47,198 nucleotides of DNA, taken from IMG/VR virus record IMGVR_UViG_3300033562_000166, positions 1 to 47,198 of that record; one strand, written 5' to 3'. A program made the translations under genes and the position numbers. The notes under the pieces are model-generated. The model saw nothing but the letters and a program-made list of their open reading frames with translations, made no database searches and had not been told where the DNA came from. Source of the DNA: a virus. Taxonomy: Duplodnaviria > Caudoviricetes. This document shows positions 8,870 to 43,777 of this stretch, piece after piece (the first letter of the stretch is position 1; the number at the start of each line of letters is the position of its first letter).

Positions 8870-9421
8870 ATGAAAACATTCATTTACGGCCTTATATCAG
8901 GCCTTTTGCTGCTAGTTGGTTACATTGCGTATCAATATTTCAGCCCCGAACCTAAGCCCGAGCCAGTTCTTTATGTTGCTGAAAATCTTCGACGTGTTGA
9001 CTCTTTAGAGTTCACAATTTCGCTTAAAGATTCACTAATTGAAAAAGCCGACAAGGCACTAAAATCACGTGAAAGAGTAATTAAGCTACAGCGTGCAAAA
9101 ATAACGGACGTTTCGAGCTATGCCGACAGTCTTGAACAAGCATATTTGTCAGATAAGACAATTGAAAAGTGCGATTCGCTGCTTTACGCTAAAAATAACG
9201 AGATTGCAGAGCGTGACACATTGATTATAAGCCTCGACCTCGAAGCGCGTGAGTACTCAGATAAGATTGTTCTGCTTGTCGAAAAGGTCGATACTCAAAA
9301 TCTGCTTTTATTCGAAAAAGACAAGACGATCGAAAACCTGAATTGTGCTGCCAGTTGGAAAGTTAATCACAGATTTTGGGCGTGGTTAATGGGGTGGAAA
9401 TGCAAACAACCACCGAATTGA
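8870..9421 (+). CDS. Spanin-like membrane-anchored coiled-coil protein
   Basis: N-terminal transmembrane helix, coiled coil, Cys residues, last gene of the lysis cassette. Confidence 0.55.
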   Translation: MKTFIYGLISGLLLLVGYIAYQYFSPEPKPEPVLYVAENLRRVDSLEFTISLKDSLIEKADKALKSRERVIKLQRAKITDVSSYADSLEQAYLSDKTIEKCDSLLYAKNNEIAERDTLIISLDLEAREYSDKIVLLVEKVDTQNLLLFEKDKTIENLNCAASWKVNHRFWAWLMGWKCKQPPN

Positions 9422-9430
9422 AAAAAAACA

Positions 9431-9438
9431 TATATTTG
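9431..9438 (+). promoter_or_regulatory. -7 promoter box TATATTTG for the putative small RNA
   Basis: Matches TAnnTTTG; no ORF downstream; a hairpin begins about 5 nt later. Confidence 0.65.
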
Positions 9439-9442
9439 CGGT

Positions 9443-9510
9443 AGCCAAATTTCAGAAGTTGCGGTCTGAAAGATTGGTGAAAAAGTTCCCTCGACCTCGG
9501 TCGGGGGAAT
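9443..9510 (+). ncRNA. Putative two-hairpin small regulatory RNA with loop AGUUGCGG
   Basis: Hairpin 1: GCCAA..TTTCAGA (9450-9456) / loop 9457-9464 / TCTGAAA..TTGGT. Hairpin 2: TTCCCTCGACC/GGTCGGGGGAA (9486-9509). Loop is complementary to CCGCAAC found at many start codons. Confidence 0.6.
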
Positions 9511-9530
9511 GCTGCAAAGTGGCAAAAACA

Positions 9531-9547
9531 TTACGATATCTTTACGA
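9531..9547 (+). repeat. Integrase arm-type direct repeats, left (TTACGA x2)
   Basis: TTACGA at 9531 and 9542; same motif recurs on the other side of the attP core. Confidence 0.6.
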
Positions 9548-9609: not shown

Positions 9610-9654
9610 ATTCATAATCATGAGGTCGGGAGTTCAATTCTCCCTCTCGCTACA
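9610..9654 (+). mobile_element. attP core: 3' half of a tRNA with CAT anticodon (Met or Ile2)
   Basis: Anticodon loop TTCATAA (9611-9617), T arm GGGAG-TTCAATT-CTCCC, acceptor strand TCTCGCT-A; no D arm or 5' acceptor strand upstream. Confidence 0.85.
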
Positions 9655-9661
9655 AAAAAAT

Positions 9662-9697
9662 AAACCCTGTAAGCGATTGATTCTTACAGGGTTTTTT
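9662..9697 (+). terminator. Intrinsic terminator after the tRNA fragment
   Basis: AAACCCTGTAAG-loop-CTTACAGGGTTTTTT. Confidence 0.85.
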
Positions 9698-9762
9698 CGT
9701 TTATAAACTTATAGGTTGATTTTTGAGTTTTGCAAATAAAGCCAAAAATACATACGTTTGCT

Positions 9763-9778
9763 TTACGAAACTTTACGA
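9763..9778 (+). repeat. Integrase arm-type direct repeats, right (TTACGA x2)
   Basis: CTTTACGAAA CTTTACGATA, with a degenerate third copy TGTACGG at about 9783. Confidence 0.6.
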
Positions 9779-9852
9779 TAGTTGTACGGAAATTGCCTGA
9801 CGCTCATTTTCTTCGATTTTATGAACTCGATAAGTCTTTCTTTTACAGCCAT
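9763..9852 (-). pseudogene. Truncated CI-like repressor (29-aa stub)
   Basis: MAVKERLIEFIKSKKMSVRQF followed by PYNYRKVS-stop; first 21 aa resemble the start of an XRE HTH; divergent from the Cro-like gene; runs into attP arm repeats. Confidence 0.68.
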
Positions 9853-9894
9853 ATACAGCGTTTTAATATATTTTAATAATTATTTTGTGCAAAA

Positions 9895-9995
9895 AATACT
9901 CATAGTATGATAAAATGCTATATCTTTGTATCGTAATTCATAGCAGAACAAATGTAATCAATAAAATTACAACATGTAATGCAAATAATACTCAT
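9895..9995. promoter_or_regulatory. Lysis/lysogeny switch region with face-to-face promoters
   Basis: TATCTTTG (+, 9921-9928), TACATTTG (-, 9949-9956), AATACTCAT repeated at 9895 and 9987. Confidence 0.6.
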
Positions 9996-10012
9996 TTTAA
10001 AAACAGAAAAGT

Positions 10013-10228
10013 ATGCTTTATTCATTTAAAAAAGGACTTAATAACGTCAAATCGGGGGATATAAGAACCGTGCGGCGTGAATTAAAGGCAGCGTTGGGTA
10101 TCACCTCTCGAAACGCATTCAATGCACGAATGCGAGGCGAAATCGAACCAAAGGTGTCAGAAGCGGAAGCTATTGAGGTAGTGTTCGAAAAATACGGTGT
10201 GTCGAAAACACAAGTTTGGGGGGAGTAG
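10013..10228 (+). CDS. Cro-like HTH regulator
   Basis: 71 aa, LKAALGITSRNAFNARMRGEIEPK helix-turn-helix; first gene of the early operon. Confidence 0.7.
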   Translation: MLYSFKKGLNNVKSGDIRTVRRELKAALGITSRNAFNARMRGEIEPKVSEAEAIEVVFEKYGVSKTQVWGE

Positions 10229-10231
10229 GAA

Positions 10232-10471
10232 ATGGAAAGTACCGCAACACTTTCAGAACGAGAAACAGAGATAGTCGAAATGATAGCAAAAGGAAAGAGC
10301 AAAAAAGAAATTGCAGATGAACTTAACTTATCAGTTCGTACAGTCGAGAATCACACACGCAACGCATTCATTAAAACTGGATGCCGTAAATCTACAGAGC
10401 TTGTGTTTTGGTTTTTATCGAATCACAGATCATTAACTAACAGTCAAAATCCGCAACAAAATGACAATTAA
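10232..10471 (+). CDS. LuxR-type HTH regulator
   Basis: LSERETEIVEMIAKGKSKKEIADELNLSVRTVENH is the GerE/LuxR signature. Confidence 0.9.
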   Translation: MESTATLSERETEIVEMIAKGKSKKEIADELNLSVRTVENHTRNAFIKTGCRKSTELVFWFLSNHRSLTNSQNPQQNDN

Positions 10472-10938: not shown

Positions 10939-10965
10939 TAACAATTTTTTACCGCAACAAAAAAA

Positions 10966-13008: not shown

Positions 13009-13032
13009 TTATTCACTTAAAAAATCCGCAAC

Positions 13033-16327: not shown

Positions 16328-16492
16328 ATGACAAAGGAAACCGCAACACAAAAGGCTAAGTTATTGCTTCAGTCAATGACTTACGAAGAACTTGCAGAAA
16401 AGCTCGGAATATCACGTCCGACATTGTATAAGAGACTCGCAGATAGCAGCTGGAAGCTCGGTGAGATATCGCTACTTGATAAATTGAAATAG
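16328..16492 (+). CDS. Small HTH protein (54 aa)
   Basis: Translated by hand: MTKETATQKAKLLLQSMTYEELAEKLGISRPTLYKRLADSSWKLGEISLLDKLK. Confidence 0.8.
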   Translation: MTKETATQKAKLLLQSMTYEELAEKLGISRPTLYKRLADSSWKLGEISLLDKLK

Positions 16493-16494
16493 CC

Positions 16495-17328
16495 ATGAAA
16501 GACTATTTTTCGCACGACTACTATTCGAGAAATGACCCGAAAATGGTCAGGCTATTCATGAAGCATGGATTGTCAGGAATAGGGGCTTATTGGTGCATAG
16601 TTGAAATGCTTTACGAGGAAGGGGGGTATATGCCGCTTTCAGAATACGAACGTATAACGTTCGAATTACGAACTTCAGAAAACGTAATACGGTATCTTAT
16701 AGACGATAGTGAATTGTTCGTAAATGATGGTGAAAAGTTTTGGTCAGAAACAGCAATTGAACGGCTAAAGAAGAGGGCGGAAAAAAGCACAAAGGCCCGT
16801 CAAAGCATTGAAAATAGGTGGAATAAGCAACGCAATAATACGGACGTTATACGAACGTATAACGATGGTAATACTAATAAAGTAAAGGAAAGTAAAGTAA
16901 AGGAAAGTAAAAAGAATGATTATAAGAAGCTTCTTTTGTCCGAAATCACGATTTCAGACTTTCCCGAACTCAATTCTGAATATGTCGAAATTGCTAAAGC
17001 ATTCAAAGAGCTGTTTAAGTCAAATCTAATAGAGGCAGGTGCTTCGACAATCACTATCGATAAAGCGAAAGGCAATTGGATTGACGATATTAGGCTATTG
17101 ATTGAAACAGACCGATACACCGTTGAACATCTTCGAAATGTTTATCAGTTCTTGCAAAATGATGCTTTTTGGAAACAAAACATTCTGAGCACTTCTAAAT
17201 TAAGAGAAAAAATGCCACAACTTAAATTGAAATTACACAATGGAACCGCAACAAATAGGAACGCTAATAAAGAAGCAACAAGCTGGGGTGAGCTTGCAGC
17301 AATCGCAGACAGCATTGTTAATTCGTGA
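16495..17328 (+). CDS. Replication initiator (DUF4373 / Lin1244-like N-terminus)
   Basis: YFSHDYYSRNDPKM..G.GAYWCIVEMLYE; central low-complexity linker with iterons; C-terminal FWKQNILSTSKLREK. Confidence 0.8.
   Translation: MKDYFSHDYYSRNDPKMVRLFMKHGLSGIGAYWCIVEMLYEEGGYMPLSEYERITFELRTSENVIRYLIDDSELFVNDGEKFWSETAIERLKKRAEKSTKARQSIENRWNKQRNNTDVIRTYNDGNTNKVKESKVKESKKNDYKKLLLSEITISDFPELNSEYVEIAKAFKELFKSNLIEAGASTITIDKAKGNWIDDIRLLIETDRYTVEHLRNVYQFLQNDAFWKQNILSTSKLREKMPQLKLKLHNGTATNRNANKEATSWGELAAIADSIVNS
16840..16912 (+). repeat. Probable origin iterons and A-rich tract inside the rep gene
   Basis: ACGGACGT, ACGAACGT, ACGATGGT at 11-bp spacing (16840, 16851, 16862), then AAAGTAAAGG repeats; extra copy at 16646. 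Confidence 0.6.
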
Positions 17329-19727: not shown

Positions 19728-19756
19728 TAACAATTTAAAACCCCGCAACAAAAAAA

Positions 19757-21934: not shown

Positions 21935-21957
21935 TACATAAAACCGCAACAAAATAT

Positions 21958-34837: not shown

Positions 34838-36289
34838 TTATTTTCTTGCCTTACGGCCTTTAGTGGTGTGAACCACCATGTTTTTCCATCCTTTTATTTC
34901 GGCAACTCGTTGGTTGAATTTACGCCATAAATCTTCGTCTATGAATTCAAAATGCATTGAGCCTTTTTTATGCCCTTTAACACGGAAAAATTTCCATTCG
35001 TGCCACTCTCCATACAGGTAGTAGGTTTTATTAAATTTGCCTCGAAGAGTTTCGTCGTAGTTTGAATCGTATTTTTCGCCAGTTAGAAAGCAAAGAGCCT
35101 TGATAATATCTTCTACTTGGTCGGAATAGCGATAATTTATTTTTACATGATCGCTTGGCCATCGTGAATCGTAGTCACAAACACATGGCAAAATGAACTT
35201 TTTCTTAATGAGAAAATCAGTGTTGGTTCGCCAACCCTCTCCGGCCGTGCTATTCTCGTAACTGAATGAGCATATCTTACCGAAAGCCTCGACGAGTACC
35301 TGGTCCATGCGTTGGCCGTGAGTTCCGGCAATCATCTGAACCATTAAGTACACATTTTTCACAGTGAAAGGAACGTGAATTTGCTGCTCAACAAACTTGT
35401 TAATGTTGGCCATTACACCTGTTGTCATGTACTTATCCATTTTCATAAGGCTAAACAGATGCTTCCAAGCTGCTTTTTGAAGTTCTTTTTTGAAAGTTTG
35501 TCTGTCGATTTCCTTGTACTCGTTATCTCGACCCGACTGTTTAGCACCAAATTTTATATTGAAGTTTGGTAGCACGCCCGAAATTGCGGTATTAATCCGC
35601 TTGTTTGCTGCTTCCACCTCGTCGAACATACTTACAGCTTCAACGTAGCGTGAAACTATGTCCTGCACAAAATCATAGCGTACTACACCCGAACCGTTAA
35701 TCTCGTCCTGTTCGTAATCATACAAGTCAAAATATCCTTCGAATTCGTTTTCTCCAGAACCTGGTTTATGAAGCCAAACGCAACCAATTGAAATGCCTGT
35801 TTCGCGTTCGGCCTTGTCGAAGCACTTGCCGAAGTTTTCTGAACGTCCAAAGCCTTTGATTATTTCGCCGATACTCTCACGCTTACGCATGTAGCGATTT
35901 TCAAGCATGGTAGCGTTGCACAGTGAGATGATTTGACAGCCTGACGGTGCAATATCCCACGCGTGTAAAAGGTGCTCTTCTTGCTTGCTAAAAGGTGGGT
36001 TCATGATGATTAAATCGATGTGTGAAATACGATCGGCTGTGAGGTCGAGAAAATCATTTTCGATGATGTGGCATTTTGTTGAAAGAACTTGTCGAAGCCG
36101 TGGTGAAATTTCACACGCAATTACTTCTTTTGCTCCCATCTGTTGACAGTAGTCAACTATCGACCCGAACCCTGCTTCAGGTTCGAGAATAACTTTGTTT
36201 GCTACCATTACACCCGAAAGCATCTTTTCGATCACTTCCGTTGGTGTTGGGTATAGGTCGGAATCCGACCATTGATTGAATGAACTCAT
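34838..36289 (-). CDS. Adenine methyltransferase-like protein with DUF4942-type C-terminus
   Basis: DLYPTP, ILEPEAGFGSI (motif I), IIMNPPF (motif IV), GEGWRTN..KKFILP, KKGSMHFEF. Confidence 0.82.
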   Translation of the reverse strand: MSSFNQWSDSDLYPTPTEVIEKMLSGVMVANKVILEPEAGFGSIVDYCQQMGAKEVIACEISPRLRQVLSTKCHIIENDFLDLTADRISHIDLIIMNPPFSKQEEHLLHAWDIAPSGCQIISLCNATMLENRYMRKRESIGEIIKGFGRSENFGKCFDKAERETGISIGCVWLHKPGSGENEFEGYFDLYDYEQDEINGSGVVRYDFVQDIVSRYVEAVSMFDEVEAANKRINTAISGVLPNFNIKFGAKQSGRDNEYKEIDRQTFKKELQKAAWKHLFSLMKMDKYMTTGVMANINKFVEQQIHVPFTVKNVYLMVQMIAGTHGQRMDQVLVEAFGKICSFSYENSTAGEGWRTNTDFLIKKKFILPCVCDYDSRWPSDHVKINYRYSDQVEDIIKALCFLTGEKYDSNYDETLRGKFNKTYYLYGEWHEWKFFRVKGHKKGSMHFEFIDEDLWRKFNQRVAEIKGWKNMVVHTTKGRKARK

Positions 36290-36319
36290 AATAATGTTGC
36301 GGTATTTAATTGTTAGAAC

Positions 36320-36413
36320 GTATCAGAGTGATACAGTGCAAAAATAGTAATTCTATTCAATACAATAGCAATTTATACTATTAAAAAAGATTAAAAAAGT
36401 ATCACGCTGATAC
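36320..36413 (-). promoter_or_regulatory. Two operators flanking promoter TATTTTTG
   Basis: GTATCAGAGTGATAC 36320-36334, CAAAAATA 36339-36346, GTATCACGCTGATAC 36399-36413. Confidence 0.7.
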
Positions 36414-37700
36414 AGTTTTGTTCAAACGTTTCCTGATTAACGGAATGTTGCTGTTTACGAGATTGACAATCTGGTCGTGGTGTTTTGTCGGTTTGTTGTG
36501 CAATCCGCGACACTGCACTACCTCGAATGAGTTAAGCGATACTTCAACTGTTTCGACAGGTTTGTTATCTATACGAGCCGAAAGAATAAGCGATTCGGCT
36601 TTGTTGTAGTACGAGCCAGTGAAAACGCAATGATGCAGCCTATCGCCTTCGTTCATAAACTCTTCAACCGATTCAAGAACCTTAACTTTGATTTTCTTAT
36701 CTTTGAATTCAAGCCCGAAAAAATCCTGCTTTTGCTTGATGTATTTTTTCTGTTCTGCTTCAATCGTTTTGCGTTGCTCTTCAAGCTTTTTCTTGCGATG
36801 CTCTTCACGTTTCTTTTCCATGTACTTGTCATGTGCAGACATGAAGTTGGCAGGGCAAACATAGTGAGCGTTGCGAATATCATTGCCAAAATGCACGAGG
36901 TCGTTCAGGTAGTCGAAGTAATCCGATGCGTGCTTGACGATATAGCCGGAACGAATGCAAATCTTTATTGTTGGCCAGTATTTTTGAATCTTTTCCATTG
37001 AATGCTTGTCAGCACTCGCCATTAATAATGCGAATTGACGTGTTTTGAGCAGTGTTTCAGCCATTGTATCTGTAAGGATAAGGGAAAAGAACTTGTGAGG
37101 TGTTAAGCCATGAAAATTGCCCTTAAAACCGTTCCTTTTGATCTCGTTAATGATGCTTCGCTTGGGATATGTCTTATAAGCTCCAAGGTCGTACCTAAGT
37201 TGAGCATGATATGTGTTCTGCTCTCTTATCTCAAATTCGCTATCGTGCACCCATTTATCGTAGCAATGCGAAAAACCTACAACTCTTTTAGCTACAGTGA
37301 CAACTTTGCCTTCTGGATAAATAAAGTGTCGCGTAACCTCTGAAGCCCACGAATAAGGTGGTTGGTTTTTGTAGTAGTTTTTTTGCACCCAAAACATTCT
37401 AACCACTTGAACACCTTTTATTGCGGTAATTATAGAGTAGTAAGCTGAATTGTTATATAGATTCTTAACTGTCAATATGCGTTCACATTTCGGGCATTGG
37501 CACCCTGCAACGGATGCAACCAAAAAGGCTTCATCTTTCCACAAGTGACCACATTCAAGACATTTCAACTCCTTGGCGTTTCGAGTTGCGTAATTATCCA
37601 GGCAATTTCCAACCCCCCAATCGAGCTGCTTTTGCGTGATAGGGCGAACTTTATTGTTTAACTCGATTGTCTTTCTATGTAATTCAGTTTTCGGCTTCAT
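36402..37700 (-). CDS. PcfJ-like protein
   Basis: CLECGH..CPKC zinc finger, DYFDYL, EGDRLHHCVF and VQCRGLHN motifs; paired with the PcfK-like gene. Confidence 0.85.
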   Translation of the reverse strand: MKPKTELHRKTIELNNKVRPITQKQLDWGVGNCLDNYATRNAKELKCLECGHLWKDEAFLVASVAGCQCPKCERILTVKNLYNNSAYYSIITAIKGVQVVRMFWVQKNYYKNQPPYSWASEVTRHFIYPEGKVVTVAKRVVGFSHCYDKWVHDSEFEIREQNTYHAQLRYDLGAYKTYPKRSIINEIKRNGFKGNFHGLTPHKFFSLILTDTMAETLLKTRQFALLMASADKHSMEKIQKYWPTIKICIRSGYIVKHASDYFDYLNDLVHFGNDIRNAHYVCPANFMSAHDKYMEKKREEHRKKKLEEQRKTIEAEQKKYIKQKQDFFGLEFKDKKIKVKVLESVEEFMNEGDRLHHCVFTGSYYNKAESLILSARIDNKPVETVEVSLNSFEVVQCRGLHNKPTKHHDQIVNLVNSNIPLIRKRLNKTVSA

Positions 37701-37703
37701 GGC

Positions 37704-38120
37704 TTAATCAAAAAGTGATGGTTGTTCGACAACGGCTGCTTTTTTCTCTTCAGCTTTTTTCGCTTTCTGAGCTTTGATTTTTTCCTGTTCTTGGGCAACA
37801 AGCTTGTCGATTGCTTCCTGCTTTGCCTTTTGCTTGTCTTCGTCTGTCAATTCAACCTTATGATTGACTACCACATTGCACTGTATAGGCTTTCCGACTT
37901 CGATGTTCTCTTCGTCGTAGTAGTGCATTGCTTGACCAAAGATTTCATCGTCTGTGAAGCCGTTGCAGCCGCTTTTTTGCACCCAATTCAGAATGTAGGT
38001 AATGCAGTTGTCAATACTTTTATTTGGGTTCGCCAATTTTACGGCGAAAAGCGGATCGTTTGAAGCCATTACCTGTAGGTGTGCTTCGATTGTCTTTTTG
38101 AATGCGTCTGTTGATTTCAT
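37704..38120 (-). CDS. PcfK-like / AcrIIA9-family protein
   Basis: NCITYILNWVQKSGCNGFTDDEIFGQAMHYYDEENIEVGKPIQCNVVVNHKVELT..SLFD. Confidence 0.82.
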   Translation of the reverse strand: MKSTDAFKKTIEAHLQVMASNDPLFAVKLANPNKSIDNCITYILNWVQKSGCNGFTDDEIFGQAMHYYDEENIEVGKPIQCNVVVNHKVELTDEDKQKAKQEAIDKLVAQEQEKIKAQKAKKAEEKKAAVVEQPSLFD

Positions 38121-38163
38121 GATTGTTGCTGATTTATGCCCCGCTTTAGCAGGGCTGGTTAGT

Positions 38164-38367
38164 TTAATTATTCTTACAAACTGATTTTAACGTGTTTAAG
38201 TCGCACTTTTTTGGTTCGTCTGCATTTTTGGTTGCATCGATTAAAGGCATATTGCTTGTAACTGTAGACCACCTTTTACCTGTTACCGGACTTGTATATG
38301 TTACTTTGTAATGACCGTGTCCACTTGGAGAGAAAGAAAAATCTGAAAGGCTGATTGTCGTTTTCAT
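38164..38367 (-). CDS. Small conserved phage protein (67 aa)
   Basis: MKTTISLSDFSFSPSGHGHYKVTYTSPVTGKRW; first gene after the promoter at 38410. Confidence 0.72.
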   Translation of the reverse strand: MKTTISLSDFSFSPSGHGHYKVTYTSPVTGKRWSTVTSNMPLIDATKNADEPKKCDLNTLKSVCKNN

Positions 38368-38395
38368 AAATCTAAATTTTAAAATTGTTGTTATC

Positions 38396-38417
38396 GTATT
38401 ACTGTGATACAAAAGTA
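38396..38417 (-). promoter_or_regulatory. Operator GTATTACTGTGATAC abutting promoter TACTTTTG
   Basis: Palindrome 38396-38410; CAAAAGTA at 38410-38417. Confidence 0.7.
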
Positions 38418-38641
38418 CAAATATATTCAATACAACAATACATGAGAGGCGAAAAACATGAGCATTTTAGTATTAATTAACTTTCGCGCCGCCCGCGCCC
38501 CCTTTTTTGGCCCTTTTTTTAATTAAATGCTGTATATCAATAGCTGTTTTCATGTCCTTTTTGGACTATTTTCTCTTTTCCCGAAAAATAAAAAAAACAG
38601 AATTAAAAATTAAAATTGGGTGTGTCGGAACGTGAGTTTCG

Positions 38642-43753: not shown

Positions 43754-43777
43754 AAACAAACATTTATCCGCAATAAA

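Follow-up and report, generated by a model that had tools for sequence, protein, structure and literature searches.

What is encoded in the short interval between the lysis genes and the attachment site of a tailed Bacteroidota phage, and why does the complement of one of its loops recur at start codons across the same genome? The DNA analysed here (47,198 nucleotides, hereafter the window) is a complete, circularly permuted 47-kb tailed phage with terminase, portal, capsid, tail and lysis genes, and with an early region coding for a LuxR-type HTH protein, an SbcC-like nuclease, RecT, a replication initiator and methylases. A Bacteroidales host is suggested by the promoter type and by a relative (L198) that resides in the genome of an uncultured Paludibacter; among the sequencing runs searched, the one that contains the phage is a microbial-mat metagenome, and no RNA data set is listed as containing it, which carries no information on expression. 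The interval in question begins 10 nt past the stop codon of the last lysis-region gene and lies directly before attP, whose core (9610-9656, plus strand) is the 3' half of a tRNA with anticodon CAT and is the fixed neighbour of the element described below. Contigs from two sequencing runs (X2 and X3) match exactly 9610-9656 and differ in their flanks; one contig, possibly from the source sample itself, spans the place where relatives have their integrase, with no joint. A terminator hairpin follows the core (9662-9697). In relatives a tyrosine integrase comes next; the window phage has no integrase, and its repressor-like gene is reduced to 21 codons (9790-9852, minus strand). The segment from attP to the first early gene (9700-10012) holds a canonical -33/-7 promoter (9729-9760) and arm-like TTTACGA repeats; an intact integrase is also absent there in L007, L008 and L198, and a whole tRNA gene takes its place in L008 and L198.

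The original prediction had described the interval as a -7 box followed by an ORF-free pair of hairpins, the first exposing an 8-nt loop. The box TATATTTG, of the Bacteroidota primary sigma type, is found at 9431-9438 on the plus strand; at a box-to-start spacing of 4-5 nt (PMC6847099), transcription from this promoter, predicted by consensus only, would begin at 9443-9444. The segment 9443-9512 folds into two hairpins at -31.2 kcal/mol (z -4.95; 0 of 200 shuffles equally stable), the minus strand folding less stably (-23.1 kcal/mol), and the fold together with the family model R1 defines a predicted small RNA of about 70 nt whose 3' end is uncertain. Hairpin 1 (9444-9478, plus strand) bears at 9457-9464 the 8-nt seed loop AGUUGCGG, which is predicted to be unpaired with a probability of about 0.9, as had been proposed; the duplex of this loop with its complement, the tag CCGCAAC, is computed at about -12 kcal/mol, and the loop 7-mer has no internal complement within the window's own RNA. 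Hairpin 2 (9485-9510, plus strand) is G+C-rich and terminator-shaped and lacks in the window the U run of an intrinsic terminator that the gut-phage form of the RNA possesses, so that processing, or else the terminator at 9662-9697, may generate the 3' end. The claim that the interval is free of ORFs needs correction: a minus-strand ORF of 54 codons (9367-9531) overlaps the element and has no consistent counterpart in relatives. No Rfam family was matched by the window element, by 8 related loci or by the corresponding element of phage Versailles. When the window was screened with a TAnnTTTG box and without any preset motif, a single non-coding structured element passed; when its 7-mers were compared with all start windows, the loop scored best (8/67, the gene caller having missed one of the nine tagged starts).

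The tag occurs 16 times on both strands of the window, against 4.19 +/- 1.87 expected (0 of 100 shuffles). One occurrence is the loop itself, six lie within coding regions, and nine are at starts, the number originally counted: six upstream, starting at positions -7 to -14 relative to the ATG (Poisson 7e-9, uncorrected for the number of k-mers), and three within the first codons (+6, +10 and +13). The upstream tag best kept in relatives precedes the SbcC-like nuclease gene (tag 10952-10958, gene 10966; 12/12 lineage orthologues, one with the wobble-compatible CCGCAGC), followed by that of the RecT-like gene (13026-13032, gene 13033; 7/9 lineage orthologues). Within the LuxR-type HTH gene (10232), the tag occupies codons 4-6 (10242-10248, +10) and is present in 10/11 lineage orthologues, where synonymous positions are held fixed, and in 0/8 gut-type ones. 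The tag of the DNA-methyltransferase-like gene (34838-36289), on the minus strand at 36296-36302 with its first base at 36302, recurs in 1/3 other orthologues. Four of the nine tags are missing from every orthologue found, namely those before ORF 10461 (10451-10457; 0/4) and ORF 19757 (19743-19749; 0/2) and the two, possibly incidental, in the first codons of a small HTH gene (16341-16347, +13, gene 16328; 0/3) and of ORF 17240 (17246-17252, +6; 0/4); for ORF 21958 (tag 21944-21950) no orthologue was found. A tenth, wobble-compatible tag, CCGCAAT, stands before the tail-region ORF 43778 (43768-43774), where the tag or a wobble variant is present in 6/11 lineage genomes. All tags other than that of the methyltransferase-like gene are on the plus strand. 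No tag accompanies the replication initiator gene (16495) of the window phage. Judged from these orthologues, a core of genes retains its tags, with turnover at the rest.

Three observations concern the surroundings of these genes. A CCGCAAC tag is found at the integrase start of one relative (L004:5907-5919). A strong Shine-Dalgarno-like run, GGGGGGAG (10215-10231), precedes the LuxR-type ATG in most orthologues, some of which carry AGGAGG; it is unusual for Bacteroidota and may reflect coupling to an upstream cro-like gene. The interval 34838-38430 is a minus-strand block of PcfK-like, PcfJ-like and DUF4942 methylase-like genes, tagged at the methylase-like gene only.

The element is a conserved one. 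A search by way of the SbcC-like protein recovered it in 6/6 distinct loci where it was found (L003-L008), all with the loop AGUUGCGG; further members came from pattern scans in which loop and box were imposed, and these are therefore not counted for loop invariance. When 16 matches (14 distinct) were aligned to model R1, 86% of paired cells were paired and 11 of 15 pairs had changed on both sides, as compared to 25-56% pairing in slid controls, the alignment being fitted to the model and thus biased toward it; the apical pairs of hairpin 1 change on both sides in 4/4 cases among the 14 distinct sequences. The TAT(A/C)TTTG box is present in 16/16 model matches with hairpin 1 a few nucleotides behind, an arrangement partly imposed by the search patterns, and hairpin 1 begins a few bases past the box, near the expected transcript start, in 13/13 members examined. 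In related phages the box, the loop, the compensated stems and the location between attP and the lysis genes are all retained. The RNA is retained in phages without an integrase (the window, L007, L008 and L198), and its gene is found at the attR end in two proviruses (G022 and G030). Across 151 Bacteroidales genomes, model R1 returned only the copy already known, and a search of viral contigs for the exact hairpin gave no match. Three RNA genes (L066, L036 and L118) are intermediate in form, combining the AGUUGCGG loop with a 5' UGUUG(C/U)G stretch, which gives the impression of a seed on its way from the loop into the bulge.

More distant phages, reached by profile search, carry a second form of the RNA. 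This gut-type RNA occupies the same place before att and consists of two hairpins with a U-run terminator; its seed, CAUUGUUGCGA, lies in a stem strand and bulge (the seed string having been imposed in some of the searches), while the apical loop is variable, down to plain tetraloops. Seed and tag change together between the two forms, a covariation for which the original prediction had proposed a test in relatives: CCGCAAC is found at 39/441 starts in 7 loop-type genomes, at 0/493 in 7 gut-type genomes and at 0/359 host genes, and (A/T)CGCAACAATG at 0/441, 23/493 and 0/359, respectively. Two loop-type fragments (G008 and G012) are excluded from this comparison; when they are included, the upstream-only count is 35/510. 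Of the loop-type tags 8/49 stand 1 nt from the ATG (range 0-7), of the gut-type tags 27/30; the fixed gap of the gut type matches the CAUUG extension unique to the gut-type RNA, whose complementarity is carried over the AUG. A third version is found in phage Versailles (ON453897, about 57926-58005): its two-hairpin element occupies the same place, the seed is in the linker, and 3/84 starts carry complements of 10-14 nt, a count that omits three start codons that matched themselves. In a quick tree of 44 SbcC-like proteins the seed types fall into separate clades, with Versailles on a long branch; since the seed types follow the tree, the covariation amounts to about three independent events and not dozens. 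Wobble-compatible variants number 7/16 against 2/12 in controls, too few to count. The seed of one member (G211) ends in GG. In two gut-type RNAs (L225:5115-5200 and L229:5102-5190), both hairpins share the loop AGUUGCA and near-identical stems.

The host sequence examined, 400 kb of one Paludibacter-type genome, provided the 359 start windows in which no tag was found, and a host-wide motif was rejected as the origin of the tags on these grounds and on a genome-wide count of 220 matches against 190 in the control. The unrelated 63-kb phage G010 has the same AGUUGCGG loop, yet CCGCAAC stands at 0/93 of its starts; a UGUUUGG segment matches CCAAACA at 7/93 starts, the match lying in a stem. Its element (L023:10001-10110) is a promoter-proximal AGUUGCGG hairpin with, 50 nt downstream, a terminator whose loop holds CCGCAAC, a possible kissing pair, and it is a stem strand that complements the ACCAAACA tag at those 7/93 starts. 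Neither the gut-type RNA nor its tags were found in G044, a complete record of the gut clade, or in Porphyromonas phage005b, a joint absence in favour of the RNA-tag link; phage005b has, in an inserted minus-strand block, a very stable two-hairpin element with a terminator (L267:26981-27070, -44 kcal/mol) behind a -7 box. A Flavobacterium-like clade carries a promoter-hairpin-terminator element that resembles the window's and has the loop UUGCUC. Its pairing with GAGCAA was dropped as a further co-varying pair, GAGCAA being found at 9/287 starts and at 8/359 host genes. The UUGCUC-like element is conserved (L240, L249, L237, L246, L266, G052 and G053), with a matching AGAGCAA at the SbcC-like start only, and may be a single-target relative or unrelated. 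Four records with tags and without the RNA (G005, G006, G007 and G032) were discarded as counter-examples, as they stop at or before the last lysis gene; L002, L013 and G021, which have tags and no model match, are fragments that may stop short of the element. The seed itself, at 7 bp, is short.

Translation repression by a trans-acting phage RNA that keeps ribosomes from loading on early genes is probably the right explanation of these comparisons. Host RNA polymerase would transcribe the RNA from about 9443, its open loop would pair with the single-stranded CCGCAAC tag over 7-8 bp at the computed -12 kcal/mol or so, and the duplex, carrying two hairpins, would occlude the start region, most simply by blocking the 30S subunit. 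In the gut-phage form, the seed in the bulge and stem strand may bind by a toehold, with strand displacement proceeding across the AUG. PMC6847099 describes initiation in F. johnsoniae as promoted by adenines at -3, -6, -12 and -13 and by low structure, start-region use in Bacteroidota depending on unstructured, A-rich sequence. The tagged start regions of the window are of this kind, open, A-rich and nearly unstructured (0 to -6.2 kcal/mol); because the tags lie within the ribosome footprint in such sequence, where a duplex carrying two hairpins would form, translation repression is the best reading. The original prediction of one RNA acting in trans on recombination, replication and methylase genes is partly borne out: the addressing of many start regions finds support in conservation, in the compensated stems and in the matched changes of seed and tag, and the replication initiator is untagged. 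The RNA would likely serve to hold down a whole group of recombination and regulator genes (SbcC-like, RecT and LuxR-type HTH). It might do so in the prophage, adding a second layer of silencing from a gene placed at the attR end with a housekeeping promoter, or else during phage multiplication, closing down early genes while copy number climbs. A role in immunity is uncertain, since the window phage lacks an integrase and a repressor.

The same RNA and the same pairing might act mainly through premature termination or decay of the early transcripts, the block to translation being secondary. The tags are strung along one long early operon, where the loss of ribosomes would be polar, and the CI RNA of phage P4 terminates transcription after pairing, according to PMC4825925. 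However, the conserved tags are all within the ribosome footprint, the gut form covers the AUG itself, and no terminator-like structure is found behind the tags, given the folding energies of the start regions; this outcome is unlikely. Also improbable is the opposite effect, in which pairing raises expression by protecting the mRNA or by helping ribosomes to load in a phylum without Shine-Dalgarno pairing. The RNA persists in phages that lack integrase and repressor and have less evident use for silencing lytic genes, and a late tail-region gene is tagged as well; both would be in keeping with activation, which the original prediction had offered as a translation-enhancer option. That option is disfavoured: the start regions are already unstructured, leaving no inhibitory structure to be opened, the tag-ATG distance varies from 0 to 7 nt, some tags lie in first codons inside the coding sequence, the gut form would cover the AUG, and structure at this place lowers initiation in F. 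johnsoniae (PMC6847099).

It is very unlikely that the tag is the binding site of an RNA- or DNA-binding phage protein and the hairpin a minus-strand decoy or an unrelated structure. The minus strand does form hairpin 1 as well, placing CCGCAAC in the loop, several small HTH proteins are encoded in the phage genome, and a GCAAC core is common to the lineages; against this, the plus strand is the likelier one by its promoter box and G-U pairs, the start tags are always on the sense strand, and neither the complementarity extended over CAAUG in gut phages nor the 10-14 nt matches of Versailles would be expected of a protein site. That the hairpins are a cis element, marking the end of the lysis transcript or insulating attP, with complementarity arising by chance or as a by-product of an intramolecular kissing loop, is hardly credible in view of the start-tag enrichment (the six upstream sites), the match of seed to tag in three lineages and a window RNA without internal complement, even with its place just past the last lysis-region gene, the loop complement in the downstream terminator of G010 and a closing stem that includes the promoter box and exceeds the shuffle level (p < 0.05) in 4/13 members.

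Translation repression by a trans-acting RNA would have partial precedents. The c4 antisense RNA of phages P1 and P7 is likewise a phage-encoded, trans-acting structured RNA; it is cut from a precursor by RNase P and has a tRNA-like closing stem. In the window's family, the closing stem that is above shuffle level in 4/13 members uses promoter-box bases, and no shared CCA lies behind it. The short loops of c4 pair near the ribosome-binding site of their target, the ant mRNA, and block its translation, and matched mutations shift the specificity (PMC12197685); the computationally predicted loop-exposed seed that co-varies with its target is a comparable feature here. In contrast to c4, the window RNA comprises two hairpins behind a putative promoter of its own, would have 5-10 targets scattered through the genome, does not match the c4 covariance model (RF01695), and is accompanied by no antirepressor among the 60 window proteins scanned, its tags being dispersed at early genes. 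On present comparisons the window RNA would work like P1 c4 without being a member of that family. The CI RNA of P4, likewise small and structured, also silences lytic functions by short-seed pairing; it is processed from a leader, pairs with the flanking seqA and seqC and causes termination (PMC4825925). Here, by comparison, the predicted targets are start codons as far as 27 kb from the RNA gene, the nearest tag is about 780 nt downstream and past the terminator, and no complementary sites flank the RNA. The use of one seed for many start regions is shared with bacterial multi-target sRNAs such as GcvB, RybB and OmrA/B, as are a promoter of its own (by consensus) and a conserved structure. 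Those sRNAs belong to the host and regulate its mRNAs, as a rule together with Hfq, whereas the phage appears to plant an identical tag at its own starts, with none at the 359 host starts. One gut-type member scored 29.2 bits against anti-hemB (RF02837), for which the gathering threshold is 49.5; this candidate was rejected, as it reflects generic hairpins and a terminator, the CU-rich loop is not shared and the window RNA is unmatched.

No description of such an RNA was found in the literature searched, subscription papers and several large supplements being out of reach. The seed strings are absent from the supplement files searched of PMC10994844 (11/20), PMC8040213 (6/8) and PMC10690425 (3/6), catalogues that may hold the RNA unnamed; the loop string does occur in the supplements of PMC2864571, where the places viewed, among 15, are in unrelated motifs. 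On comparative evidence, computational as it is, the phage RNA family is real and undescribed, and the case for multi-target pairing is strong.

Antisense RNAs known from phages, c4 and CI among them, work on one or two sites nearby. If one RNA does address a tag placed at many start regions of its own phage, the gene programme would be controlled differently, and a tag-based control suits a phylum whose ribosomes ignore Shine-Dalgarno sequences. A bolder version, for which the odds fall somewhat short of even, is that of a microRNA-like master switch: a 70-nt RNA would silence, through a seed of 7-11 nt, a genome-wide set of the phage's own genes bearing planted tags, which would be gained and lost gene by gene while the seed moved among loop, bulge and linker; the switch could take the part of a repressor protein in choosing lysis or lysogeny, or in the early-to-late decision, and act also against related phages that share the tag. 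Versailles is an inducible prophage of a cultured mouse-gut strain, Bacteroides caecimuris I48 (PMC10197239), and as the family reaches gut Bacteroidales prophages and this cultured phage, it is directly testable. A short seed-tag pair of this kind could serve as a compact translation switch for Bacteroides.
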